Positions 32,070 through 59,979 of a stretch of 64,000 nt of DNA are shown piece after piece. This DNA comes from a bacterium (GTDB lineage: Bacteria > Patescibacteriota > JABMPQ01 > JBDRIV01), in assembly GCA_043815505.1 (NCBI GenBank), contig JBDRIV010000004.1, positions 7,135-71,134 on the forward strand, written 5' to 3'. Both the position numbers and the translations under genes were made by a program. Numbering within the stretch: the stretch's first letter is position 1; the number at the start of each line of letters is the position of its first letter. The notes under the pieces are model-generated. The model was not told the DNA's origin, did not search any database, and saw only the letters and a list, made by a program, of their open reading frames with translations.

Positions 32070-33188
32070 TTACATAATACTATAATGTTTTATTCTTGTC
32101 AAGTCTGCTGTTAACTTAGGGTTATTTAAATTTTTCAACAGATAAGCTAAATATTTAGCATTAGCCTTAATATCATTGTTTTGCATTGCATATTCTCTTC
32201 CTTTTTTCCCTATTTCATTTCTTAAGTTCTTGCTTTCTAGAAGCTTTTTAAAAGCTTGAACCCATTCCTCTTTTTTATCCGCCAAAATTCCCGTATCATT
32301 TCTGGCAAAATCAATATTCATGCCAACTGGGGAAGCTACAAAAGGAACTCCGGCCGCCATATACTGAACTAGTTTAAAACCACTCTTTCCTCTTTCCCAC
32401 TCATTGTCATGAAGTGGCATTACACCAATATCAAATTTTAATAACTCTTCAATTTCATTTTCTTTTGACCAGGGAATAATTTTAGTTTTAACATTTCCTA
32501 AAATATCTTGAGGTGTACTTTTCGGACCAATAATATGAAAAGTAAATTTAATTTCTTTAGATAATTCATCGAGCGCTGGTTTTATAATTTCTAAATATTT
32601 TAATCCTGGTTCTGAACCTATCCAACCAATAACATATTGGTTTTTCTGCTCATGATATTTTGTTGGATATTCATCAACATTAACACTATCAAAATATAAA
32701 CAAGTATTTTTAGAATATTTATCAGCATAATTTTTTAAATGTTTTGAACCTACTAATGTAAGTTTTGACATTTCTATTAAATTACCTAACTTATCTTCAC
32801 CTTTTAGGGGACGCCAATCCTTTAGATGTTCGGGGAAAGTGTAAACGGCGTCGTCAAAATCTAGGACAACATTTTTGTTTACTAGTTTAATAAATTTTTC
32901 AATCCAATCTTTACCAATAGGAAAACCTTCTTTCTGAATTATTACCACTTTTACAAAAGGGGCCACAAATAGAATTGTCAGCAACCTCAATTTTAACCCC
33001 CAAAGCAAATATATTGTCTTGCGAATTCTTTTGCCCTTAACATTTTTATTTGTAAATAGCCATTTAGAAAATATTGAATGATGAATCAAATTAACATCAT
33101 GTTTATTCAACTCATTTTTGAGCAATAAAAATCTTACCCTAGCACACGGTTCTTCGTATGGATAAGTTGTTAGGAGTAAACATTTCAT
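32070..33188 (-). CDS. Glycosyltransferase (GT-B fold, GT1/GT4-like)
   Basis: A 372-aa protein between GT4 genes. Its C-terminal region resembles a GT-B nucleotide-binding half. The call rests on weak motif evidence. Confidence 0.45.
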   Translation of the reverse strand: MKCLLLTTYPYEEPCARVRFLLLKNELNKHDVNLIHHSIFSKWLFTNKNVKGKRIRKTIYLLWGLKLRLLTILFVAPFVKVVIIQKEGFPIGKDWIEKFIKLVNKNVVLDFDDAVYTFPEHLKDWRPLKGEDKLGNLIEMSKLTLVGSKHLKNYADKYSKNTCLYFDSVNVDEYPTKYHEQKNQYVIGWIGSEPGLKYLEIIKPALDELSKEIKFTFHIIGPKSTPQDILGNVKTKIIPWSKENEIEELLKFDIGVMPLHDNEWERGKSGFKLVQYMAAGVPFVASPVGMNIDFARNDTGILADKKEEWVQAFKKLLESKNLRNEIGKKGREYAMQNNDIKANAKYLAYLLKNLNNPKLTADLTRIKHYSIM

Positions 33189-46331: not shown

Positions 46332-46409
46332 CCCGGTTGTACAATTTAATATTCATATATTTCAATTATTCATGCTACGGTTATACAAATTAATTATTGT
46401 ACAACCGGG
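46332..46409. repeat. Perfect 14-bp inverted repeat (CCCGGTTGTACAAT-N50-ATTGTACAACCGGG) filling the rplR-rpsE spacer
   Basis: The arms lie at 46332..46345 and 46396..46409. The proximal arm abuts the rpsE ATG (46331..46329). Confidence 0.6.
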
Positions 46410-46413
46410 CATA

Positions 46414-47324: not shown

Positions 47325-47720
47325 TTACCAGATTTTACAAATTAATTCTCCGCCCATTCTGCGACGACGCGCTTCTCTATCTGTCATTAATCCTTGCGAA
47401 GTTGAAAGAATTACTGTTCCTAACCCACCACGAACTCGTGGTATACTTCTTCTTCCTTCGTGAATTCTTCTTCCCGGTTTACTCATTCTTTTTATACCAT
47501 TAATAACGGGATTTTTATTCTCGTCATATTTTAGGGTCACAATTAAGCTTTTTCTTTCCTTACTATCAGTTTCCGGTGCTACTTCAGCAATAAAACCCTC
47601 GGCCACTAAAACTTCTGCCAGAGCAGCTTTGATGGTAGAATGCGGGATTTTTACCTCCGCTTTACCTACTGCTTGAGCATTTTTTATTCTTATTAACATG
47701 TCTGAAATTGGATCGGTCAT
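47325..47720 (-). CDS. rpsH: 30S ribosomal protein S8
   Basis: MTDPISDMLIRIKNA N-terminus. Confidence 0.9.
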   Translation of the reverse strand: MTDPISDMLIRIKNAQAVGKAEVKIPHSTIKAALAEVLVAEGFIAEVAPETDSKERKSLIVTLKYDENKNPVINGIKRMSKPGRRIHEGRRSIPRVRGGLGTVILSTSQGLMTDREARRRRMGGELICKIW

Positions 47721-47728
47721 AATAATTA

Positions 47729-47855
47729 AGTCAAAAGTTAAAAGTCAAAGGTAAAAAGTTTGAAGTTAAATGTAAAAAGGCAAAATTTAAAACCAAGCGA
47801 GTTCTGGAGCTTACCACTTTCAATTACTTTTGAATTTTGAGTTTTGACTTTTGAC
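47729..47855. repeat. Intercistronic inverted-repeat element (CAAAAG/GTCAAA-type arms of about 29 bp flanking about 75 bp) between rpsN and rpsH
   Basis: The left arm AAGTCAAAAGTTAAAAGTCAAAGG (47729..47752) matches the reverse complement of the right arm CTTTTGAATTTTGAGTTTTGACTTTTGAC (47827..47855). The element is related to the ones at 52700..52778 and 59882..59942. Confidence 0.5.
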
Positions 47856-47862
47856 ATATATT

Positions 47863-48048
47863 TTACCAACTTGATTTTTTAATACCTGGGATTTCCCCAT
47901 TATTAGCCATTTCTCTAAAACAAATTCTACACAAACCAAATTTTCTCATGTAACCATGTTTACGACCACAAGCAAAACATCTGTTTATTTTTCTGGTTGA
48001 ATACTTAGGTTTTCTTTTCGCCTTTACGACGAGTGCTTTTCTAGCCAT
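47863..48048 (-). CDS. rpsN: 30S ribosomal protein S14 type Z (zinc-binding, 61 aa)
   Basis: [20 protein letters not shown]. Confidence 0.85.
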
Positions 48049-48050
48049 AT

Positions 48051-48590
48051 TTATTTACTAAAGGGAAAATTAAATTCTTTTAATAAGTTTTTTGTTTCTT
48101 CATCATTCTTAGCGGTAGTGGCAATTGTAATTTCTAAACCATGAATCCCTGAAACTTGATCCATTCTAATTTCCGGAAAAACAGTATGTTCTTTAATACC
48201 AATTGTTATATTTCCCTGCTTATCAAAACTTTTAGGATCAATGCCACGAAAATCTCTAACACGCGGTAAAGTAATATTTATAAATCTATCTAAGAAATCA
48301 TACATTCTCGTTCCTCTCAACGTCACCATCAAACCCACAACTGAACCTTCTCTAAGTTTAAAATTGGAAATAGATTTTTTAGCAACTTTTTTTGAAGGTT
48401 GCTGACCAGTAATATCGCGTAAGTTATTTATCATGGTTTCCAAAACATTTTTATCGTCAGCGGCTTTACCGGCACCAATACTGACAATAATTTTATCAAC
48501 TTTTGGAACAGCCATAACATTATCAGTTTTTTTGTTCTTTAAAAAGGCTGGTACTATCTTTTTATTAAATTTTTCTTCTAATCTATTCAT
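48051..48590 (-). CDS. rplE: 50S ribosomal protein L5
   Basis: A 179-aa protein with L5-conserved segments, in the canonical spc position. Confidence 0.9.
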
Positions 48591-48596
48591 AACTTT

Positions 48597-48914
48597 TTAA
48601 GAAATTACCTCTTTACACTTTACACAAATGCGGGCAGTTTTTTTGTCCTGTAATTTTTTCTTACCTACTCTGGTGGGCTTACCACATTTTGGACAAACCA
48701 TCATAACATTGGAAATATTTACCGATCCGTTAATATCAACTCGCTGACCTTTTTCACCTTGTTTTTTTGGTCGGTTATGTTTCTTGAGGATATTTACACC
48801 GTCAATTACTAGCTTACCATTAATAGGATCGGTTGATAAAACTTTGCCCTTTTTTCCACTATCTTTGCCTGTAACTACTTGAACGGTGTCACCTTTTTTT
48901 ATTCTCAACTTCAT
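48597..48914 (-). CDS. rplX: 50S ribosomal protein L24 with C-terminal C4 zinc-ribbon extension
   Basis: KGDTVQVVTGKDSGKKGKVL KOW motif plus CPKCG...CVKC. Confidence 0.85.
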   Translation of the reverse strand: MKLRIKKGDTVQVVTGKDSGKKGKVLSTDPINGKLVIDGVNILKKHNRPKKQGEKGQRVDINGSVNISNVMMVCPKCGKPTRVGKKKLQDKKTARICVKCKEVIS

Positions 48915-48918
48915 ATTT

Positions 48919-49290
48919 TTATAATACCTCAGGTGCTAAAGATATAATTTTACTATAACCAGCTTCACGCAATTCTCTTGCTACCGGTCCAAAAATTCTG
49001 GTACCACGTGGATCTTTTGAATCACTCGAAATTATTACAGCAGCGTTTTCATCAAATTTAATCAAGGAACCATCTTTTCTTTGAAATTCCTTTTTTTGTC
49101 TGACGATAACACAGTGCACAACTTCTTTTTTCTTAACCATACCATGAGGAGTAGCTTCTTTTACGGAAGCAATTACTACATCACCAATGCGGGCGTAGCG
49201 CTTTCTGTTACCACCAAGCACTTTAAAACACTCGATCGATTTAGCACCAGTATTGTCGGCTACTTTCAGTTTTGTTTCTGCTTGAATCAT
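48919..49290 (-). CDS. rplN: 50S ribosomal protein L14
   Basis: [17 protein letters not shown]. Confidence 0.92.
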
Positions 49291-49593
49291 TTATTTAGAC
49301 TTTTTTAAAACTTTGAATCTTTTATCACGAGAAAGTGGGCGTACTTCTTCAATAATAACCTCATCACCAGTTTTATATTCATTCTTGGCATCATGAGCTT
49401 TATATTTTTTGCTACTTATAAAACGCTTGCTGTAACGAGGATGATTTTTTAAGCGATCAACTCTAACAACTACAGTCTTATCCATTTTATCACTAACAAT
49501 TACACCGACCAATTGTCGCTTTTGTACTTCTTTAGTGTCTCGTGGTGAGTTTACCGAACTATCTTCAATTTTTTTACTTTCCGGCTTGTTCAT
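49291..49593 (-). CDS. rpsQ: 30S ribosomal protein S17 (N-terminal extension)
   Basis: [28 protein letters not shown]. Confidence 0.85.
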
Positions 49594-49804
49594 CTTTTTT
49601 GGTTACTGACTTTTTATTCTTCATTGAATCATTTAACAACATGGAAATTCTAGCCACGTCTCTTTTTTCAACTTTTATTTCGTTAAAATTTTTTAACTGT
49701 CCAGATGCACTCTTAAATTTAAGTTCTCTAATTTTATTCTTTTTACTAAGCAAAAGTTTTTTCAATTCTTCGGTAGATTTTCCTTTTAATTCCTTAAACT
49801 TCAT
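49574..49804 (-). CDS. rpmC: 50S ribosomal protein L29
   Basis: [27 protein letters not shown]. Confidence 0.8.
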
Positions 49805-50214
49805 TATTTTATAATAAACCTTGTTTTTACTGATAATTTATTGGCAGCCAGACGCAGTGCTTCTTTAGCTACATCTTCCTCTACGCCATCCATTTCAAAT
49901 AGAATACGTCCGGGTTTTACAATAACCACAAAATGATCAACTGTACCCTTTCCCTTACCCATTGGCATTTCAGCTCCTTTAGCTGTTATGGGTTTATCGG
50001 GAAATATTCTAATCCAAATTTTACCACCACGTTGCACAAATCTGGTCATAGCACGACGAGCCGCTTCAATTTGCCGAGAAGATATCCATGATTTTTCAAC
50101 AGCTTTCAAACCATAAATCCCAAAGGAAAGATCCGCACCACGAGTGGCCTTGCCTAAATTTCTTCTTCTCCCCTTTTGATGTTTGCGGTGTTTTACCTTT
50201 TTAGGCATCAACAT
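49804..50214 (-). CDS. rplP: 50S ribosomal protein L16
   Basis: [16 protein letters not shown]. Confidence 0.9.
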
Positions 50215-50215
50215 A

Positions 50216-50899
50216 TTATTTCTTCTCCTCCTTCTTAATTCCTTCTAATCTTTTTTCATCAGCATTAAATACTTCACCTTTATAAATCCAAATTTTAATT
50301 CCAACTACTCCATAAGTTGTATAAGCATTTGTTCTATTAAAATCAATGTCAGCTCTTAAGGTTTGCAGTGGAATACTACCTTCTACTATCCATTCGCGTC
50401 GTGACATTTCCGCACCGTCAAGCCGTCCCGCAATCATAATTTTTACCCCCTTAGCACCTGCTTCTATAACTTTTCCAGCCATTTGTTTCATAACTCTCCG
50501 AAAGGGCATACGTTTTTCAATTTGTTCTGCCGCCATAATACCTACTAATTTAGCATCAAGTAAAGGTTGTCTAACTTCTTGAATATTTATTTTTATTTGA
50601 GTTTTACTGGAAGGAAGTATTTTATTAATTTCTTTTTTCAAATCTTCAATTCCTCCTCCACCTCTACCAATAATTAAACCTGGTCGAGAGGAATAAATAT
50701 TATAAATAATTTCCTGAGGTGACCGTTCAACTTCAATTTTGGAAATTGCGGCATCCTTCAATTTTTTCAATAAAAACTTTTTCACTTTTGTATCCTGCTC
50801 TAAATAAACTGCATAATTCTTACCAGAAAACCACTTGGAGTTCCAAGAGTAGAGATAACCTAATCGATATGCTTTGGGATGGACCTTTTGTCCCATCAA
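50216..50899 (-). CDS. rpsC: 30S ribosomal protein S3
   Basis: [13 protein letters not shown], and a KH domain. Confidence 0.9.
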
Positions 50900-50912
50900 A
50901 ATGAATTAATAA

Positions 50913-51479
50913 TTATTGAGCTTTTCTTCTGAAAAATCTTTGTTTAAATCCTTTTCTCATCTTTCCTGATTTTTTATCTTCAAATTTTTTACCGTCTGGT
51001 GCTGTAAATGTTTTTTTCTCTTCTTTCTCGTCCTCTTGTCCTGAGCTTGTCGAAGAAACTTTTTTATCCACTGCTTCGCTTTTAGCATCATAATTTACTG
51101 GTTTTGGTTTTGCAGTTGCCTTTTCTTTCTTCTGACGTTTACCTTCTTTTCTTTCGTTCAGAATAACTGTAATGTGACTTTCTCTCTTTCTAATTGGAAA
51201 AGCGCGTCCGAAGGCACGTGGTTGATATCTTACCAATGTTCTACCTTCATCACAAGTTACAAATTCAATATATAAATTTTCTTTAACCATGTCGTGATTG
51301 TTTTCACCGTTGGCGATAGCGCTTTTCAAGATTTCTCTCATTAACCTAGCACCTTTATGAGGCATAAAAACAAGTTGTCTTTCTGCTTCCACGGCATCCA
51401 TGCCACGCACAACATTGGCAATCAAACGAATCTTGCGTGGTGATATTTTTACATTTTTTCCTTTAGCTTTAACTTGCAT
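50913..51479 (-). CDS. rplV: 50S ribosomal protein L22 (long C-terminal Lys/Glu-rich extension)
   Basis: The L22 core spans residues 1-115, followed by a 70-aa tail. Confidence 0.85.
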   Translation of the reverse strand: MQVKAKGKNVKISPRKIRLIANVVRGMDAVEAERQLVFMPHKGARLMREILKSAIANGENNHDMVKENLYIEFVTCDEGRTLVRYQPRAFGRAFPIRKRESHITVILNERKEGKRQKKEKATAKPKPVNYDAKSEAVDKKVSSTSSGQEDEKEEKKTFTAPDGKKFEDKKSGKMRKGFKQRFFRRKAQ

Positions 51480-51481
51480 AA

Positions 51482-51838
51482 TTATTCCTTTTTATTTTCT
51501 TCCTTTCCTTCAACATCTTCTTTGGTAGCAGCTATTTTAGCCTTAGCTGCTTCGGCTTCAGCCATTTCCTGTTCCTTAGCCATGCGACCACCATGTCCAT
51601 GAAATTTTCTAGTTGGAGAAAACTCGCCTAATTTGTGTCCGACCATATCTTCGGTAACAAAAACTGGTGTATGTTCTTTGCCATTATGAACACCAAAAGT
51701 AAAACCTACCATTTCTGGGGAAATAGTTGAGCTTCTGGCCCAGGTTTTTATAACCGTTTTATCGTCCGCTTTTAAATTACTAATTTTTTTCAGCAATTTT
51801 TCATCGACGTATGGTCCTTTTTTTAGTGATCTCGACAT
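51482..51838 (-). CDS. rpsS: 30S ribosomal protein S19 (C-terminal extension)
   Basis: [19 protein letters not shown] and [17 protein letters not shown]. Confidence 0.9.
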
Positions 51839-51840
51839 AA

Positions 51841-52683
51841 CTATTTTTTCCTATTCTTACGCGGTTTAATAATAAATCTATCTGAAAATTTAACTTGCTT
51901 TCTACTTGGTACACCCAAAGCTGGTTTACCCCATTTAGTTTTTGGTCGTCTGAGACCAATTGGTGATCTTCCTTCACCGCCACCATGAGGATGATCAACA
52001 GGATTCATAGCCTTACCACGAACTGTTGGTCGTTTGCTTTGCCATCTCTTACGACCAGCTTTTCCAATAACAATATTATTATGATCCCCTCTGGAAACTG
52101 TACCGATTGTGGCGGAACATTCAGAATTCACATTTCTAACTTCACCAGAAGGAAATTTAATTTGCGTATATTCTCCGTCATGAGCAACAACTGTAGCATA
52201 AGTTCCAGCTGACCTAGCTCGAACAGCACCTCTACCTACTTCAATTTCTACATTATGAATTTCTGTACCCAAAGGCATATGTTTTAAAATCGTTCGGTTA
52301 CCATTTTTAATCTCAATTTTTTTTCTGGAAGAAACGATTTCATCCCCAACTTTCATTTTTTTAGTGGCAATAATATAAGATTTTTTTCCATTTGAATAAG
52401 TAAGAAGAGCAATAAAGGCGGAACGATTGGGATCGTATTCAACAGCTTTCACTATGGCTGTAATATCGTAATCTTGTTGCTTAAAATCGATTTCTCTGTG
52501 CTTTCTTTTATTACCCCCACCACGGTGTCGAATTGTAACTGTTCCAGTACGAGCACGTCCAGCTTTTTGCTTCTTATATTTAGTAAGACTTTTTTCGGGT
52601 CTCTTTTTTGTTAAAGTCGAAAAATCAGTCGTGGACATAGTACGACGGGATGGAGTGTATGGTTTGTAATTTTTAATTGACAT
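51841..52683 (-). CDS. rplB: 50S ribosomal protein L2
   Basis: [14 protein letters not shown]. The start is the ATG at 52683; the track extends it to a TTG at 52689. Confidence 0.92.
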
Positions 52684-52699
52684 AAACAATTCAAATTTT

Positions 52700-52778
52700 A
52701 AAACTCAAAAGTCAAAACTACTACGACTTTTTGTTTACTAAATTAATAATTTTTGACCTTTGACTTTTTACTTTTAAC
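52700..52778. repeat. Intercistronic inverted-repeat element (AAAAGTCAAA-core arms) between rplW and rplB
   Basis: AAAACTCAAAAGTCAAAAC (52700..52718) matches the reverse complement of GACCTTTGACTTTTTAC (52754..52770). It shares the GTCAAAAG/CTTTTGAC motif family with 47729..47855 and 59882..59942. Confidence 0.5.
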
Positions 52779-52785
52779 TTAACTA

Positions 52786-53271
52786 TCATACTCCTTCAAC
52801 TAAATCTAATTTATCGCCAGCAATCAATTTCACATAAGCTTTTTTGTAACGGCTGGTGAAACCCTTGCTTCTACCATAGCGTCTCATTTTTCCTTTTACA
52901 TTAACGATTCTAACTTGAACAACTTGTACACCATATAAATCCTCCACCGCATTTGCAATCTGACGACGATTGGAATCTTTATTTACAATAAAAGCATATT
53001 TATTTTCTTCCTGAATTACTGAAGCTTTTTCTGAAATAACTGGTTTAATCAAAATTTTGTAAGCTCTATTGTCATCTTTTTTACTGACTTTTCTTTTGAC
53101 AACAGTTTTTTTCTTGGGTTTAGCCTTTTCTTTATTTACTTGTCCTGAGCCTGTCGAAGAATCTTTTTTTTCACTAACAGTTTCGGCCTTTTTTGGAGCA
53201 TCCTTAACTTTGTCATTTTTAGTGACTTCCTTTTCTTCTTCTTCTTTCTTTTTACGATTAAATAAACCCAT
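52786..53271 (-). CDS. rplW: 50S ribosomal protein L23 (about 68-aa N-terminal Lys/Glu-rich extension)
   Basis: The L23 core AYKILIKPVISEKA begins at about residue 69. Confidence 0.8.
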   Translation of the reverse strand: MGLFNRKKKEEEEKEVTKNDKVKDAPKKAETVSEKKDSSTGSGQVNKEKAKPKKKTVVKRKVSKKDDNRAYKILIKPVISEKASVIQEENKYAFIVNKDSNRRQIANAVEDLYGVQVVQVRIVNVKGKMRRYGRSKGFTSRYKKAYVKLIAGDKLDLVEGV

Positions 53272-53273
53272 AA

Positions 53274-53903
53274 TTACTTAGCAAATTTCTTTTCTAAAGT
53301 GTTAATTGTTTCTGGCAGTACTAACAAATATTCATAAGAAACTAGATCGATAATATCTAAAATGTCCGTGTTTGTAACTTTAACTTTCTGAATATTTTTG
53401 GAGGCTCGGTAAACTTTGTCGTCTTTCTTTGGCAAAACAATCAGTAAACTTTTATTCTTAACAGGTAATTTAGAAATTACCTTCGCCATCTCTCTGGTTT
53501 TAACATCTTTTATGTTCAAATCATCAACGACCAACAATTTATCTTCTTTGGCTTTAGCTGTAAGAATAGCCAGCAACGCTTTTTGTCTTTCCTTCCTATT
53601 AACTTTGCGTTTATAATTTCTTTCCTTACTTGGTCCAAATGTTACACCGCCCCCAATCCAAATTGGAGAACGAATTGATCCATGTCTAGCTCGGCCAGTT
53701 CCTTTTTGTTTCCAAGGTTTTTTACCACCACCTCTAACATCAGATCTTCCTTTGGTATTAGCAATTATTTCTCTTTTATTACTTCTGGCAGCAACTAAAA
53801 CTTTATAAATAGTATCATCAGCTACTTGCACAGAGAATAATGAAGCCGGCAACTTTTGTTTGCCAGTATCTTTGCCTTCAGAATTTAATAATTTAGCTTC
53901 CAT
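53274..53903 (-). CDS. rplD: 50S ribosomal protein L4
   Basis: A 209-aa protein with the KPWKQKGTGRARHGS motif. Confidence 0.88.
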   Translation of the reverse strand: MEAKLLNSEGKDTGKQKLPASLFSVQVADDTIYKVLVAARSNKREIIANTKGRSDVRGGGKKPWKQKGTGRARHGSIRSPIWIGGGVTFGPSKERNYKRKVNRKERQKALLAILTAKAKEDKLLVVDDLNIKDVKTREMAKVISKLPVKNKSLLIVLPKKDDKVYRASKNIQKVKVTNTDILDIIDLVSYEYLLVLPETINTLEKKFAK

Positions 53904-54526
53904 TATTTTACTTTTCTTACTTGTACAATTTTTCCCTTAGCACCCGGAACAGAACCCTTCACCGCTAAAATATTTTTCTTAACATCAACTGTAGCAACTT
54001 CTAAATTACTTATTGTTACTCTTTCGTTACCCATACGTCCAGCCATTTTCATTCCCTTCATAACATGTTGAGGAAAAGCGGCACCAATTGATCCAGGAGC
54101 TCTTTCGTCATGTCTGTGTCCATGAGTTTTAGGCGAACCAGCAAAACCGTGGCGTTTTACCACGCCGGCAAATCCTCTACCTTTACTAGTTGAAGTAACT
54201 TTTACTTTGTCGCCTGTAGCAAAACTTTCTACTGTGAAAACGTCGCCCACTTTTGGTAATTTGTAATCTTCTTTTTTAAACTTTATTCTCATTTCTTTCA
54301 AGCCAACAAACTTTTTCTTCAAATTTTTTAGATGACCCTGCATGGGTTTACTAATTTTTTTAGCTTCAGCGTAACCAATTTGGACAGCGGTATAACCATC
54401 TTTGTCATCATTTTTTACTTGTGTAACTGTGCAAGGACCCACTTCCAAAACTGTGACCGGAATAACTTTTCCGCTCTCATCATACGTTCTACTCATACCA
54501 ATTTTTTTGCCTAACATAAAATCCAT
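53903..54526 (-). CDS. rplC: 50S ribosomal protein L3
   Basis: GKKIGMSRTYDESGKVIPVTVLE. Confidence 0.9.
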   Translation of the reverse strand: MDFMLGKKIGMSRTYDESGKVIPVTVLEVGPCTVTQVKNDDKDGYTAVQIGYAEAKKISKPMQGHLKNLKKKFVGLKEMRIKFKKEDYKLPKVGDVFTVESFATGDKVKVTSTSKGRGFAGVVKRHGFAGSPKTHGHRHDERAPGSIGAAFPQHVMKGMKMAGRMGNERVTISNLEVATVDVKKNILAVKGSVPGAKGKIVQVRKVK

Positions 54527-54548
54527 CTTGCTTGATTGATTAAAACAA

Positions 54549-54594
54549 GGATCTTAGTACGTAGCAAAATCGCTTTTGCTACCTACAAAGATCC
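54549..54594. promoter_or_regulatory. Nested perfect stem-loop in the rpsJ-rplC intercistronic spacer
   Basis: An outer 7-bp stem GGATCTT/AAGATCC (54549..54555 and 54588..54594) encloses an inner 9-bp stem GTAGCAAAA-TCGC-TTTTGCTAC (54561..54582). Confidence 0.45.
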
Positions 54595-54615
54595 CATCGC
54601 TAAAAGGAATCTTAT

Positions 54616-55092
54616 TTACATCTTGATCTCAATGTCAACGCCAGCAGGTAAATTCAGATTAGTCAGTGAATCCACAGTTTTAGGGGTCGGATTGGTGATA
54701 TCAATTAAACGCTTGTGAATTCTCATTTCGTACTGCTCTCGTGAATCCTTATGAACGAATGGTGATTTAATAACTGTATACTTATTCTTTTCGGTTGGTA
54801 GGGGTACGGGGCCAGAAATATCAGCGCCAGTTCTTTTGGCAGTTTCCACAATTTTCAAAGCCGTTTGATCAACAACTTTGTGATCATAAGCTTTAATTTT
54901 AATTCTTACCCGTTGCGAAACTTCTTCAGCTCCGGTTGCAACCTGTTTATTAGCATCAACTTTTTTAGCAATGGTTTTTTTCGCTACTCTCTTCTTGCTG
55001 GTAGTTTTCTTGGTTGACTTCTTATGTGATGCGGATTTTGCTTTAGCTGAAGCAGGTTTTTTAGCCTTCTTAGCTTTTTTTGAATCTGGCAT
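54616..55092 (-). CDS. rpsJ: 30S ribosomal protein S10 (about 55-aa N-terminal Lys/Ala-rich extension)
   Basis: The core [16 protein letters not shown]...[18 protein letters not shown] follows a histone-H1-like [15 protein letters not shown] tail. Confidence 0.88.
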
Positions 55093-55141
55093 TAACTTTT
55101 AAATAATAGAACTTATTATTATTTTCCTCTATACACAGAAA

Positions 55142-55190
55142 GCTGGCGCCTCTCACCTTCTAAATTAGAAAGCAAGAGACGCCGCTTTTT
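55142..55190. terminator. GC-rich imperfect hairpin followed by a T-run (plus-strand sense) in the tuf-rpsJ spacer; possible bidirectional terminator or attenuator
   Basis: GCTGGCGCCTCTCACC...AAGAGACGCCGC is followed by TTTTTGTGTTTATTT. The stem is imperfect. Both flanking genes are on the minus strand, so function is uncertain. Confidence 0.3.
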
Positions 55191-55209
55191 GTGTTTATTT
55201 ACAATTCAT

Positions 55210-56418
55210 TTATTTGACAATCTTGGTTACGGCACCGGCGCCAACAGTTTTTCCACCTTCGCGAATAGCAAAGCGCATACCATCTTCCATAGCAATCGGA
55301 GAACCAAGTTTGATTTGCATTTTTACAGTATCCCCAGGCATTACCATTTCGGCATCTTTTCCATCTTCAGACATAACTTTTTCCACTTCACCAGTTACAT
55401 CAGTTGTCCTGATATAGAACTGTGGTTTGTACCCTTTAACAAAAGCTGTATGACGTCCACCTTCTTCTTGAGTTAGAACATAAACCTCGGCTTCAAATTC
55501 TGTATGAGGAGTAATTGAGCCTGGTTTAGCCAAAACTTGACCACGTTCAACTTCTTCTTTCTTAGTACCACGAAGCAAAACACCAGCATTATCACCAGCT
55601 TTTCCTTCATCAAGTTGTTTGTTGAACATCTCAATTCCGGTAACAACGGTTTTAGAAGTGTCTTTAATTCCAACGATTTCAATTTCGTCGTTTACTTTAA
55701 CAACACCGCGATCAATTCTACCTGTCACAACAGTTCCGCGACCTTCAATTGAGAAAATATCTTCAATTGGCATTAAGAAATCTTTATCAACATCTCGTTT
55801 TGGTTCTGGAATATGTTCATCCAAAGCTTTAATAAGTTCCAAAACCGCTTTGCCATCTTCACCCTTGGGATCTTCCAAAGCCTTTAGAGCTGAACCTTTT
55901 ATTACAGGAATATCATCACCTGGGAATTCATATTTTTTAAGCAAATCACGAACTTCAACTTCTACTAGGTCTAGAAGTTCTGGATCATCAACTTGATCAG
56001 TTTTATTTAAGAAAACTACCATAGCAGGAACATTAACTTGACGAGCCAACAAAATATGTTCACGGGTTTGAGGCATTGGACCATCAGCGGCTGAAACTAC
56101 TAAAATAGCGCCGTCCATCTGGGCAGCACCAGTAATCATATTCTTAACATAGTCAGCGTGACCTGGGCAGTCAACATGAGCATAATGTCGATTAGGACTT
56201 TCATACTCACAATGAGCGGTAGCAATTGTAATACCACGCTCTTTTTCTTCAGGAGCGTTGTCAATCTGATCAACAGATTTTACATTTGCTTTGTAACCCT
56301 CACCAGCTTCTGCCAAAGTGTTTAAAATGGCAGCTGTAAGAGTGGTTTTACCATGGTCAACGTGTCCAATTGTACCCACGTTAACGTGTGGTTTTGAGCG
56401 GTCAAATTTTTCGGCCAT
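55210..56418 (-). CDS. tuf: Elongation factor Tu
   Basis: [22 protein letters not shown] and NKTD. Confidence 0.95.
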
Positions 56419-56451
56419 ATATTTTAATTTAAATGTTTAAATTTAAGCTTA

Positions 56452-56525
56452 TTAATACTGAATTTCACAAGTTTTGGCAAGTGAAGTTCAGCGTTAAGTA
56501 TAACAAGAGCTATTGATTTTGGCAA
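56452..56525 (-). promoter_or_regulatory. Two tandem sigma70-type promoters upstream of tuf (P1: TTGCCA-N17-TATACT; P2: TTGCCA-N17-TATTAA)
   Basis: On the minus strand P1 has -35 at 56525..56520 and -10 at 56502..56497. P2 has -35 at 56480..56475 and -10 at 56457..56452. The -35 elements are an 11-bp direct repeat (TTTTGGCAAGT on the plus strand). Confidence 0.45.
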
Positions 56526-56584
56526 GTCCCTCTTACTGACATATCATCCACTACTGCTTTTTGGCTTATATAAGCCTATATTTA

Positions 56585-58681
56585 TTATTTTTTAGTCGTT
56601 TCTTCTCCTCCGGCTTTAGTCATAATTTCTTCAGCTACATTTCTTGGTACAGGCTCATAATGGTCAAATTCCATGGTGTAGTTGGCTCTTCCTTGAGTCA
56701 TAGAACGAAGTGAGGTCGCATAACCAAACATTTCTGACAAAGGAACTTGAGCATCTATTTCTTTCATTTGCGCTCGATCTTCCATTTTTTCCACTTGACC
56801 TCTTTTGGAATTTAAATCTCCAACCACATCACCCATAAACTGTTCTGGAGTTACTACTGTTACTTTCATCATTGGTTCCAATAATTGTGGCTTAGCTTTT
56901 TTGAAACAAGCTTGAAAAGCCATCGAGGCAGCAATTTTGAAAGCAGCTTCGGAGGAATCTACATCATGATAAGAACCATCATAAGCTGTGGCTTTAACAT
57001 CAACAATTGGATAACCAGCCAGCACACCATTATCCATTGCTTCTTTCACACCTTTTTCAACGGCGGGAACATATTCTTGAGGAATTACACCACCTTTAAT
57101 TTCATTAGCAAATTCGAATCCTTCTCCCCGCTCGCGAGGTTCCAAACGAATCCAAACATGTCCGTACTGACCACGACCACCGGATTGTCTAATATATTTT
57201 CCTTCTGCTTCAGCGGTCGTAAAAATAGTTTCTTTGTAAGCAACTTGTGGTTTACCAATATTTGCCTCAACATTAAATTCTCTTTTCATGCGATCAATAA
57301 TAACTTCCAAATGAAGTTCGCCCATTCCCGAAATAATTGTCTGGGCTGTCTCCTCATCTGTTTTAACCTGAAATGTTGGGTCTTCTTCAGCTAGTTTATG
57401 TAAAGCAATACTCATTTTTTCCTGATCAGCTTTGGTTTTTGGCTCAACAGAAATAGAAATAACAGGTTCAGGGAAAGTAATTTTTTCTAAGATAATTTGA
57501 TTCTCTTGATCACAAAGTGTATCACCAGTTGTGGTGTTGTCCAGTCCAACAATAGCAGCAATGTCACCAGCATAAACTTTTTTAATTTCTTCCCGTTTAT
57601 TAGCATGCATCATTAAAATTCGTCCTACTCTTTCTTTTTTTCCGGTGGTGGAATTATAAACATAGGAACCGGCTTCTAAAGTTCCAGAATACATTCTAAA
57701 GAAGGCTAATTTTCCCACAAAAGGATCAGTAGCAATTTTAAATACCAAAGCTGATTGTGGTTCTTCATCGGATGCATGTCGTTCCATTTCTTTTTCTTCA
57801 TCTTCAGGATCAATGCCTTTGATAGCAGGAATATCAAGTGGTGAAGGTAAATATTCTACAATGGCATCAAGCATTTGCTGAACACCTTTGTTTTTTAAGG
57901 CCGAACCACAAAGAATAGGAATAAATTCGTTGGCTATAACACCTTTTCTAATTGCTTTAACAATTTCTTCTTCTGAAAGTTCTGTTCCTTCCAAATACTT
58001 TTCCATTGTTTTTTCGTCATTTTCAACGGCTGCTTCAATCATTTTTTCACGATATTCGCGTGTCTTGTCTTTCATATCGTCAGGAATTTCCTGTTCTTCA
58101 ATTTCCTTGCCCATTTCATCTTTAAAGACATAAGCTTTTTGTTTCAATAAATCCACAATTCCTAAGAAATTTTCTTCAATACCAATTGGTAACTGAATAG
58201 GATAAGCTTTCTTGGTTAAACGATCGTGAATGGAATCTACGTCACCATAAAAATCGGCACCAGTTCTATCCAGTTTATTTATAAAACACATTCTCGGTAC
58301 ACTGTATTTTTCAGCTTGGTGCCAAACAGTTTCCGATTGCGGTTCCACGCCAGCGACACCATCAAAGACAACCACGCCACCGTCGAGCACACGCAAACTT
58401 CTTTCCACCTCAACCGTAAAATCTACATGACCTGGGGTATCAATAATATTTATTCTGGTGTCTTTCCAAAAACAAGTGGTAGCAGCAGAAGTAATGGTAA
58501 TACCGCGTTCACGTTCCTGTTCCATCCAATCCATTTCAGCTTCACCTTCATGAACTTCACCAATCTTATGTTTTTTTCCAGTGTAATATAAAACGCGCTC
58601 AGTAACAGTAGTTTTACCGGCATCAATATGAGCAATGATTCCAATATTTCTTGTTTTCTCTAAGGTGTAATCGCGCGCCAT
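56585..58681 (-). CDS. fusA: Elongation factor G
   Basis: [19 protein letters not shown] and DTPGHVDF, with a length of 698 aa. Confidence 0.95.
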
Positions 58682-58792
58682 CTAATTTTGCTTATTGCTT
58701 ATGGCGAATAGCTTATGTATAAGCTACTCACTTTAAGTAATAAAAAACCACTGGCCGTGGCTATTAGCTATTTGCCATATGCCACTGGCCGT

Positions 58793-59260
58793 TTATGCAT
58801 AGTGAGCAAAAGCCTTGTTTGCTTCAGCCATGCGATGAGTATCATCTCTTTTCTTCATAGCTGTTCCCATTTTCTTAGCAGCATCCATTAATTCATTGGC
58901 CAATCTAGTTGCCATTGGTCGTCCACTTTTTCTTTTAACTGCGCCAATAATCCAACGAAAAGCCAAAGTATTACGACGTCCGCCGCGAACTTCCACTGGC
59001 ACCTGATAGTTAGCACCACCAACTCTTTTAGCCCTTACTTCAACTTGCGGTCCTACATTTCTCATAGCTAAATCGAAAATATCGATAGGATCTTTTTTGG
59101 TTTTAGCGGCAATAATTTCGAACGCATCATAAACAATATGTTCGGCCGTACTCTTCTTACCTCTTTCCATAATATGATTAATAAATTTGGCCACTAAAAC
59201 ATTATTGAATTTTGGATCAGGTAAAATATTTCTCTTATATTGTCTTTTTCGTCTAGGCAT
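58793..59260 (-). CDS. rpsG: 30S ribosomal protein S7
   Basis: [20 protein letters not shown]. Confidence 0.92.
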
Positions 59261-59264
59261 TAGT

Positions 59265-59400
59265 TTGCTTATGGCCTATAGCTTATGGCTAAGGGCACAT
59301 TGAATTATTTATTATATGTTGTTTATGGCTTATGGCGAATAGTCTGTGGCCACTGGCACTTAGATTATTTATTATTATGGCTTATGGCGAATAGTTTATT
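59265..59400. repeat. Tandem ~55-bp direct repeats (about 2.5 copies) in the rpsL-rpsG spacer, containing the 16-mer GGCTTATGGCGAATAG twice
   Basis: The 16-mer is exact at 59327..59342 and 59379..59394. A 15-mer copy lies at 58697..58711 in the rpsG-fusA spacer. TTATTTATTAT is also repeated at 59306 and 59366. Confidence 0.55.
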
Positions 59401-59439
59401 GAAATAAACTGCTATTTGTTATTGGCAATTAGCTATCTG

Positions 59440-59862
59440 CTACTTAGCTTTCTGCTTTTTAGCACCGTATAAACTACGACTTTGTTTTCTATCATCAACT
59501 CCAGTAGCATCTAAAACTCCGCGAATAATATGATAACGCACACCGGGAAGATCTGGAACACGACCACCACGAATTAATACAATGGAATGTTCTTGTAAAG
59601 TGTGTCCTTCTCCTGGAATATAGGCTGTTACTTCCATGCCATTAGTTAATCTTACTCTGGCAATTTTTCTGAGAGCTGAATTCGGTTTTTTAGGAGCTGT
59701 AGTTGTTACTTTTACGCAAACACCACGCTTAAAAGGACTACCTTTAGGTAGAATTTTATTACGTCTTTTTATATGATTGAATGATTTTAGCAAAGCCGGT
59801 GATTTTGGCTTTTTTTTGCTTGATTTACGCGGCTTGCGAATTAATTGATTTATTGTTGGCAT
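59440..59862 (-). CDS. rpsL: 30S ribosomal protein S12
   Basis: [10 protein letters not shown]...[10 protein letters not shown]. Confidence 0.92.
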
Positions 59863-59881
59863 ATAAAATTAACTCAAATTT

Positions 59882-59942
59882 CAAAAGTAAAAGAGTCAAA
59901 GGATTAGATTGGTACTTTTGATTTTTGAGTTTTCCTTTTGAC
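59882..59942. repeat. Inverted-repeat element (CAAAAG/GTCAAAGG-type) in the rpsL 5' leader
   Basis: CAAAAGTAAAAGAGTCAAAGG (59882..59902) matches the reverse complement of CTTTTGATTTTTGAGTTTTCCTTTTGAC (59915..59942). Confidence 0.45.
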
Positions 59943-59950
59943 TTAATATA

Positions 59951-59979
59951 TTATTACCATACGCTAATTTTTCTGTCAA
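59951..59979 (-). promoter_or_regulatory. Sigma70-type promoter of the str operon (TTGACA-N17-TAATAA with upstream TGG extended -10)
   Basis: The minus strand carries -35 TTGACA at 59979..59974 and -10 TAATAA at 59956..59951. The predicted TSS is about 59944, just upstream of the leader hairpin. Confidence 0.4.

Follow-up and report, generated by a model that had tools for sequence, protein, structure and literature searches.

Three inverted-repeat elements were found in the ribosomal protein operon of a patescibacterium, in a 64 kb stretch of DNA (64,000 nucleotides of contig JBDRIV010000004.1, hereafter the window), and are designated E1 (rpsN-rpsH spacer), E2 (rplW-rplB spacer) and E3 (rpsL leader). 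Comparison of their sequences with those of related loci suggests that all three are copies of one palindrome made of heptameric simple sequence repeats (SSRs), resembling short tandemly repeated repetitive (STRR) sequences, which would be passively transcribed and would not constitute a conserved regulatory RNA. The probability of this interpretation was judged to be about 0.62. The operon is a str/S10/spc cluster on the minus strand, with the gene order rpsL, rpsG, fusA, tuf, rpsJ, rplC, rplD, rplW, rplB ... rpsN, rpsH ... secY. The identities of S14, S8, L23, L2, S12, S7 and S10 were confirmed by Pfam, which also identified a glycosyltransferase gene upstream of rpsL, outside the operon. 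The location of all three elements is non-coding, either between confirmed ribosomal protein genes or in the rpsL leader. The GC content of the window is 29-41% and the genome is compact, with gaps of mostly 0-25 nt; the large gaps are concentrated in the ribosomal protein operon.

The arms of E1 (47720-47759 and 47826-47865) are 40 nt long and 78% complementary, while those of E2 (52698-52716 and 52759-52777) and E3 (59871-59889 and 59913-59931) are 19 nt long and in both cases 89% complementary. All are composed of tandem heptamers, with 3-9 copies of GTCAAAA/TTTTGAC. Tandem Repeats Finder (TRF) detected period-7 arrays in E1 at 47826-47855 (4.3 copies) and 47728-47792 (9.3 copies at 68% matches), and in E2 at 52751-52780 (4.3 copies) and 52700-52719 (2.9 copies); the heptamer units of E3 were read directly from the sequence. 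No further period-7 array of four or more copies was found by TRF elsewhere in the 64 kb. The original prediction, made from the sequence of the window, had placed the elements correctly at these three sites, with E3 beginning about 11 nt earlier than was noted. It had also proposed that the elements inflate normally tiny gaps, which agrees with spacer lengths of 142 nt (rpsN-rpsH) and 96 nt (rplW-rplB), compared with only 5-36 nt for both junctions in the nearest relatives (L2 61-65% identical). E3 fills roughly the final 80 nt of the rpsL leader.

The three copies are genuinely related beyond chance. Pairwise local alignments scored z = 5-11 over shuffled sequences, a control which the claimed sequence-level similarity of the copies therefore withstood. 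Arm identities were in the range of 83-90% (29/33 for E1 left against E2 inverted, 28/31 for E1 right against E3 right, and 24/29). The variant units keep their order between copies, and irregular units such as GTCAAAGG are found in the same register. E2 aligned best as an inverted copy of E1, because its 5' arm is identical at 29 of 33 positions to the plus-strand left arm of E1. A 21-nt consensus, TASTTTTGAHTTTTGAGTTTT, has exactly three matches in the 64 kb, all of them at E1-E3, where 0.01 were expected. When 140-nt tiles of the window were compared, the best non-self tiles were mostly the other elements; for E2, a coding stretch near 32761-32970 outscored E3, and an extra match to E2 at 32846-32898, inside a coding region, was weak (nhmmer E 0.69). 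Single-sequence nhmmer searches were marginal (E 0.08-0.5), yet ranked the other copies first. The bare octamers GTCAAAAG and GTCAAAGG alone were not over-represented in the window. All three copies lie within 12 kb, inside the 16-kb operon.

Conservation of the elements was assessed at the corresponding junctions of 80 loci centred on rplB, using one genome per species. The closest L2 matches in a species-level genome collection were metagenome-assembled genomes (MAGs) of Patescibacteria (candidate phyla radiation, CPR) with at most 60% identity, and in a collection of 5.8 billion proteins the next relatives after the source MAG itself were 61-65% identical. The lineage is poorly sampled, since the closest other L2 is only this similar. 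One L2 candidate, P0002 (L081 620-1990), was rejected as the closest match, being a duplicated, chimeric gene of only about 50% identity. In the nearest relatives no conservation was found at the rplW-rplB and rpsN-rpsH junctions, where orthologous alignments do not exist, and the short spacers of these genomes indicate that E1 and E2 are lineage-specific gains and not conserved sites.

The turnover of comparable elements could be followed in other Patescibacteria. Two genomes that are 98% identical differ at the rplW-rplB spacer, which in one (L014) is 112 nt long with a hairpin of GAATTTT units, compared with 16 nt in the other (L008); the two spacers differ by a clean indel of about 92 nt. 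A 26-nt loop segment is common to the L014 element and the one in the rplD-rplW spacer, one spacer upstream, which argues that the former is a recent local copy. Two trios of genomes that are about 82% identical (L018/L020/L029 and L030/L042/L060) differ in the junctions that are occupied and in the units, lengths and presence of the elements. In L029, L018 and L020 the rplW-rplB spacers are 22, 37 and 140 nt, respectively, all on an AAGTTTT seed, a series such as in-situ expansion would produce.

Heptamer arrays were common in the ribosomal protein loci of this phylum. Intergenic tandem arrays of at least three copies were screened for in 81 loci centred on the ribosomal protein operon, mostly from Patescibacteria, and those with a period of 7 predominated (107 arrays), followed by periods of 8 (39), 9 (17), 5 and 6 (7 each) and 10 (4); the Chloroflexi and Firmicutes loci of the set had almost no arrays. 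Many Patescibacteria have spacers of 80-170 nt at these junctions, with hairpin arms of 3-9 tandem units of 7-8 nt. The unit varies by genome (GAATTTT, CATTAAAA, GAAGTAA, TTTTCAA, CTAGCTT, TTCAGTGC and others). Inverted array pairs numbered 38, in 18 of the 81 loci, and gave 34 distinct hairpins, most of them filling intercistronic ribosomal protein spacers, at approximately 16 junctions from rpsL-rpsG to rplO-secY. At least a dozen junctions carry arrays in one locus, L042. Arrays are also present in the flanks, and so are not exclusive to the ribosomal protein cluster.

The sense strands of E1, E2 and E3 were predicted to fold at -26.8, -18.4 and -15.0 kcal/mol, with z = -3.2, -4.8 and -2.8, respectively, against dinucleotide shuffles; the predicted stems are bulged and of 19-43 bp. 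Each hairpin begins a few nucleotides past the upstream stop codon and stops 8-11 nt short of the next start codon, and the start region beyond it is AU-rich and unpaired. Were pairing maintained at the mRNA level, the sense strand would be expected to fold better owing to G-U wobble, and this was assessed with 37 hairpins (34 from relatives, together with E1-E3). No strand bias was detected: the sense fold was better in 18 of the 37 and the antisense fold in 19 (mean difference -0.5 kcal/mol, Wilcoxon p = 0.97), and the antisense fold was better in two of the three window elements. Arm mismatches were uncompensated in register, with arms that are 73-89% complementary. Taken together, the lack of strand bias and the uncompensated mismatches make the complementarity look like a DNA-level property, arising by duplication or template switching, rather than a selected RNA fold.

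Rfam gave no match over the window at gathering thresholds, and nothing relevant at E up to 5 over 44-62 kb. A terminator scan reported none of E1-E3, the stems of which are AU-rich and not GC-rich with a T-run, and a role as intrinsic terminators was rejected on these two grounds. Small open reading frames (ORFs) inside the elements were also rejected, as the only reads were low-complexity with a TTG start. A shared RNA regulatory motif had been offered as one explanation of the similarity; this is not supported, given the absence of the elements from the relatives' junctions, the turnover at 82-98% identity, the lack of strand bias and the lack of an Rfam match.

The repeat unit was also found outside this lineage. 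No further copy was present in the other 48 kb of the window. The unit type was recovered widely in other DNA, the 21-nt consensus matching at least 120 metagenome contigs. In 80 of these, which were examined using crude ORF calls for intergenic status and which range in GC content from 0.27 to 0.64, the consensus match always extends into a TTTTGAN array of 3-7 units. The arrays are intergenic in 55/80, and an inverted partner is found within 250 nt in 24/80. Among 72,556 plasmids the only matches to E1 were intergenic (TTTTGAC)5 arrays of Anabaena cylindrica and Nostoc flagelliforme, and a phage collection gave no E1-related match. STRR heptamer repeats are classically associated with cyanobacteria of the Anabaena/Nostoc type. 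The (TTTTGAC)n array of Nostocales plasmids and of two metagenome contigs (L207 1445-1575, L208 1470-1555, L087 and L130) was observed inside a larger element with inverted repeats as its boundaries, one end having CTAGTAC...CGGCG and the other CCGCG..GCGGTACTAG; this suggests a dispersed element of cyanobacteria in which the heptamer array is embedded.

No description of such elements in Patescibacteria/CPR or in ribosomal protein operons was found in the literature, only general background on heptamer repeats. Heptameric repeats are over-represented in bacterial intergenic regions, differ between close relatives and at times form inverted pairs, and the preference for 7 nt has been attributed to polymerase slippage (PMC4692102). 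Like the cyanobacterial STRR and the GGGAATC-type repeats of Xanthomonas and Nostoc (PMC4692102), the present elements have an intergenic 7-nt unit repeated in tandem 3-10 times, are highly variable in length and sequence among close relatives and include inverted pairs able to form stem-loops. E1-E3 have 7-nt tandem arrays of at least three copies at non-coding sites, rapid change is seen in related Patescibacteria, and the TTTTGAC unit itself is known as (TTTTGAC)5 in the Anabaena/Nostoc plasmids. They differ from STRR and GGGAATC-type repeats in that the arrays are nearly always paired into hairpins, and in that they fill whole intercistronic spacers of a polycistronic ribosomal protein operon in a small-genome patescibacterium. 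As the arrays are AT-rich rather than G-rich, they lack G-quadruplex potential.

The following sequence of events is consistent with these patterns. Replication slippage on a 7-nt unit would create and resize the arrays. The complementary arm would arise, and the element would spread among the spacers of the operon, by template switching within a strand or by copying from an adjacent spacer. A GTCAAAA-type run followed by a complementary TTTTGAC-type run would form the palindrome. The elements would then be passively transcribed in the str/S10/spc mRNA as AU-rich hairpins of -15 to -27 kcal/mol, each of which may keep the stop and start codons near in space while leaving the AU-rich start region single-stranded. 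A Shine-Dalgarno (SD)-like motif was found within 20 nt upstream of only 15 of the 68 window genes and A/T-rich sequence precedes most starts, which suggests that initiation in this genome is largely SD-independent. Insertions may be tolerated in an essential operon because, in such an SD-poor organism, the stop and start codons stay close and the start region stays open. If the hairpins influence the processing or stability of the mRNA, this would be incidental and not a conserved, sequence-specific regulatory function.

Several observations weigh against this interpretation. The 16-kb operon contains all three copies in the window, the remaining 48 kb having none, and in carrier loci the array density is 2.8 per kb of intergenic DNA in the ribosomal protein cluster compared with 1.4 in the flanks (p = 5e-4); neither the concentration in the operon nor the twofold density is predicted by a purely neutral process. 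L095, a Patescibacteria contig found by DNA pattern alone (fusA 64% and rpsL 70% identical), has NTCAAAA/TTTTGAN hairpins at three places, the rpsL leader and the rpsB-tsf and rpsG-fusA spacers, a placement that hints at a link with translation genes. The end of its rpsL leader (...TTTGAGATTTGAGTTTTTATT-ATG) is close to that of the window (...TTTGAAATTTGAGTTAATTTTAT-ATG). The fast turnover was shown in other Patescibacteria lineages only, and the slippage and template-switch mechanism is itself deduced from sequence patterns.

Alternatively, the hairpins may have been selected as sequence-independent punctuation of the mRNA, either for processing by RNase III or another enzyme, for stabilisation of 5' and 3' ends, or for bridging stop and start codons for re-initiation. 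This explanation was considered rather unlikely. In its favour, the sense folds of E1-E3 are better than those of shuffles, approximately nine junctions of the window operon are inflated by strong hairpins of several sequence types, and the twofold enrichment of arrays in ribosomal protein operons, the hairpins of L095 beside translation genes and the SD-poor genome are all compatible with it. A predicted sigma-70-type promoter (59950..59979, minus strand; TTGACA-18-AATAAT, 11/12), which is the top promoter match in 44-61 kb, is directly upstream of E3, and E3 would thus start at about +1 of the rpsL mRNA, a position in which a 5' hairpin might protect the mRNA. The geometry is also consistent, the hairpins of relatives beginning 0-15 nt past the stop codon and stopping 2-13 nt before the start codon; however, such geometry is a trivial result of inserting into a spacer of 10-20 nt. 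Against selection for punctuation are the failure of G-U wobble to favour the mRNA strand (18 sense and 19 antisense), the uncompensated arm mismatches with variant units out of register, the variation in presence and absence between genomes of 98% identity, the lack of conserved junctions and the many arrays with no complementary partner, for example that of L020 at rplW-rplB.

A broader form of this explanation, in which Patescibacteria possess a structure-only system of intercistronic hairpins that is continually rebuilt from heptamers and punctuates the ribosomal protein mRNA, was regarded as somewhat more doubtful still. Were it true, the hairpins could mark sites of processing, signal stability of the transcript, or serve as bridges by which a ribosome that is terminating passes to the next start codon without a Shine-Dalgarno sequence. 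Selection would then be on having a hairpin and not on its sequence, which would explain the rapid sequence turnover, the lasting architecture and the twofold enrichment in the operon, and would represent an unusual case of structure conservation without sequence conservation.

The heptamer-repeat interpretation must also be compared with miniature mobile elements, akin to miniature inverted-repeat transposable elements (MITEs) or REPINs, moved in trans by a transposase encoded elsewhere. The copies share the order of their variant units and one is inverted, the whole L014 element including its loop was copied to the next spacer, and in E1, L030 and L005 the arrays flank a core of 60-220 nt in the manner of terminal repeats around a cargo. 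Correia/NEMIS elements, the MITEs of Neisseria, are similar in being inverted-repeat elements of 100-150 nt beside genes that give long transcribed hairpins, possible substrates for RNase III. The transcribed hairpins of Correia/NEMIS elements are cleaved by this enzyme. E1-E3 lack both the fixed terminal inverted repeats and the TA target duplication that characterise Correia elements. No consistent target-site duplication was found at E1, E2 or the L014 insertion, and TTAA occurs on both sides of E3 only; the arm ends vary by whole heptamer units, and the short spacers of relatives already hold 2-3 seed units.

E1-E3 likewise resemble the repetitive extragenic palindromic (REP) sequences, BIMEs and REPINs of enterobacteria and pseudomonads, which are short, imperfect, extragenic palindromes, co-transcribed in operons, able to form hairpins in mRNA and found in either orientation. 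REPs have a defined consensus of 20-40 nt, number in the hundreds per genome and are associated with a dedicated RAYT transposase, whereas the consensus here occurs three times in 64 kb, with all copies within 12 kb, the arms are SSR arrays with variable numbers of heptamers and the elements have no known transposase partner; a RAYT gene was not searched for genome-wide. The phage collection gave no match and the plasmid matches were limited to cyanobacterial heptamer arrays. A mobile element was therefore considered improbable. Of the dispersed repeat family that had been proposed as REP- or MITE-like, the relatedness in sequence is upheld, but the assignment to REPs or MITEs is not, on account of the lack of a consistent target-site duplication, the variable heptamer arms in place of defined terminal repeats and the absence of further copies from the other 48 kb of the window.

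Binding sites for S8, L2, S12 or another trans-acting regulator, which would form a new family of autoregulatory leaders, are very improbable. Each element is directly upstream of a ribosomal protein gene, and E1 precedes rpsH, the gene of the known regulator S8. The enterobacterial autoregulatory sites are those of S8 at rplE, L4 in the S10 leader and S7 between rpsL and rpsG; these are also structured RNAs in the same operons, but they are rRNA mimics, each unlike the others, and show conservation within their clade, whereas E1-E3 are mutually alike, are not conserved and have no counterpart in Rfam, even when E values up to 5 are allowed. In addition, one sequence is shared ahead of three different proteins, it is absent from the corresponding junctions in relatives and the TTTTGAN unit is found in unrelated contexts across phyla. 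Chance resemblance of AT-rich, low-complexity spacers, with which the lack of over-representation of the bare octamers and the marginal nhmmer values would agree, is refuted by the alignment scores (z 5-11), by three consensus matches where 0.01 were expected, by 83-90% arm identity over about 30 nt and by the lack of such arrays in any other window spacer, and merits almost no weight.

If E1-E3 are heptamer-repeat palindromes, the biology of STRR-like repeats would extend to the small-genome candidate phyla. The window and many other Patescibacteria show that the highly conserved, tightly packed str/S10/spc cluster can absorb repeat hairpins of 70-170 nt without gene loss, in L042 at more than a dozen junctions. 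Caution is required in annotation, where such spacers should not be taken for conserved riboswitches or leaders. They would provide a natural system for studying the translation of downstream cistrons across structured spacers in SD-poor bacteria. E1-E3 are regarded as a real feature but not as a new regulatory RNA, and the phylum-wide loading of the ribosomal operon with such hairpins is the aspect of greatest note.

The structure of each element, as read in the mRNA (minus strand), is as follows. The 5' arm of E1 (47824..47857) starts 7 nt past the rpsN stop codon and consists of four tandem heptamers, GTCAAAA GTCAAAA CTCAAAA TTCAAAA, then GTAA; the central part (47763..47823) has degenerate heptamers and a GC-richer core, GGTAAGCTCCAGAACTCGCTTGG, which forms the top of the hairpin; and the 3' arm (47728..47762), CTTTTTAC CTTTGAC TTTTAAC TTTTGAC, stops 9 nt before the rpsH ATG. 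In E2 the 5' arm (52748..52782) reads GTTAAAA GTAAAAA GTCAAAG GTCAAAA, and is separated by a loop (52723..52747) from a 3' arm (52692..52722) of GTTTTGAC TTTTGAG TTTTAAA ATTTG, which stops a few nucleotides before the rplB start, either a TTG at 52689 or an ATG two codons downstream. The 5' arm of E3 in the rpsL leader (59911..59944) is GTCAAAAG GAAAAC TCAAAAA TCAAAAG TACC, the outermost unit of which is unpaired in the minimum free energy (MFE) fold, and the 3' arm (59871..59905), CCTTTGAC TCTTTTAC TTTTGAA ATTTGAG TT, stops 8 nt before the rpsL ATG at 59862. The loops of E1, E2 and E3 have no mutual similarity.

Other hairpins were observed in the same operon. A second repeat family is present in the rpsL-rpsG spacer (59261-59439, 179 nt), the location of the S7 autoregulatory site in E. 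coli, and in the rpsG-fusA spacer (58682-58792, 111 nt), with units such as GCCATAA, CTATTCGCCATAAGC and GCTAATAGCC. The rpsG-fusA spacer has two strong hairpins (-42 kcal/mol, z = -7.0), one of which is followed by a T-run (GGCCAGTGG-TTTTTT). A GC-rich, near-perfect hairpin lies in the tuf-rpsJ spacer (55133-55194; -42.8 kcal/mol, z = -7.3); it has about 27 bp and a tail resembling that of a terminator, and could be a tuf terminator or an attenuator of the S10 leader; plant miRNA matches in Rfam near this hairpin, which is unrelated to E1-E3, were rejected as spurious. Two further structures unrelated to E1-E3 are a strong hairpin in the rpsJ-rplC spacer (54527-54615, z = -5.3) and a perfect 14-bp stem, CCCGGTTGTACAAT, at 46332-46413 between the S5-like and L15-like genes (z = -4.8).

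Two proteins of the window operon appear to have N-terminal extensions of about 60-70 residues that are rich in Lys, Ala and Glu, assuming that the ORF starts are correct. These are S10 (54616-55092, 158 aa), in which the Pfam domain begins at residue 63, and L23 (52786-53271, 161 aa), with its domain at 72-156. The rejected L2 candidate P0002 is an 'L2' of 456 aa in which the L2_N/L2_C domains are duplicated; it lies on a 4.8-kb contig of the European Nucleotide Archive (L081), and is probably an assembly chimera of two strains.

Additional features were seen in the ribosomal protein loci of relatives. In L030 (15261-15573) and L005 (18892-19200), heptamer arrays (AAAATGT/CATTTTG) are found on either side of GC-richer cores of 200-220 nt that fold strongly; these cored elements occupy the rpsN-rpsH and rplO-secY spacers. 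The cores have no Rfam match and no obvious resemblance to each other. The elements may represent repeat arms around an unknown structured RNA. An Uhrbacteria ribosomal protein locus (L026 2558-2785) has nine copies of AGGGATC followed by 21 copies of AACCTAG, the former unit being of the same type as the G-quadruplex-forming GGGAATC repeats of Xanthomonas and Nostoc. In two related genomes, L004 (15015-15361) and L005 (15439-15796), an rpsN-rpsH 'spacer' of about 350 nt appears to contain a conserved small ORF (MTIDLSKLQKII...EEIADVMIYCLGLCEILGI...), the product of which looks MazG-like, as judged by eye. The rpsL leaders of L014, L042, L060, L063 and L071 have, downstream of a CTTGAC promoter-like box, a small hairpin of CCCG-N6-CGGG followed by TTTGTTTT or ATTATTTT, approximately 40-70 nt before the ATG; the window does not have this hairpin, which may represent a conserved str operon leader that is an attenuator or resembles a terminator.

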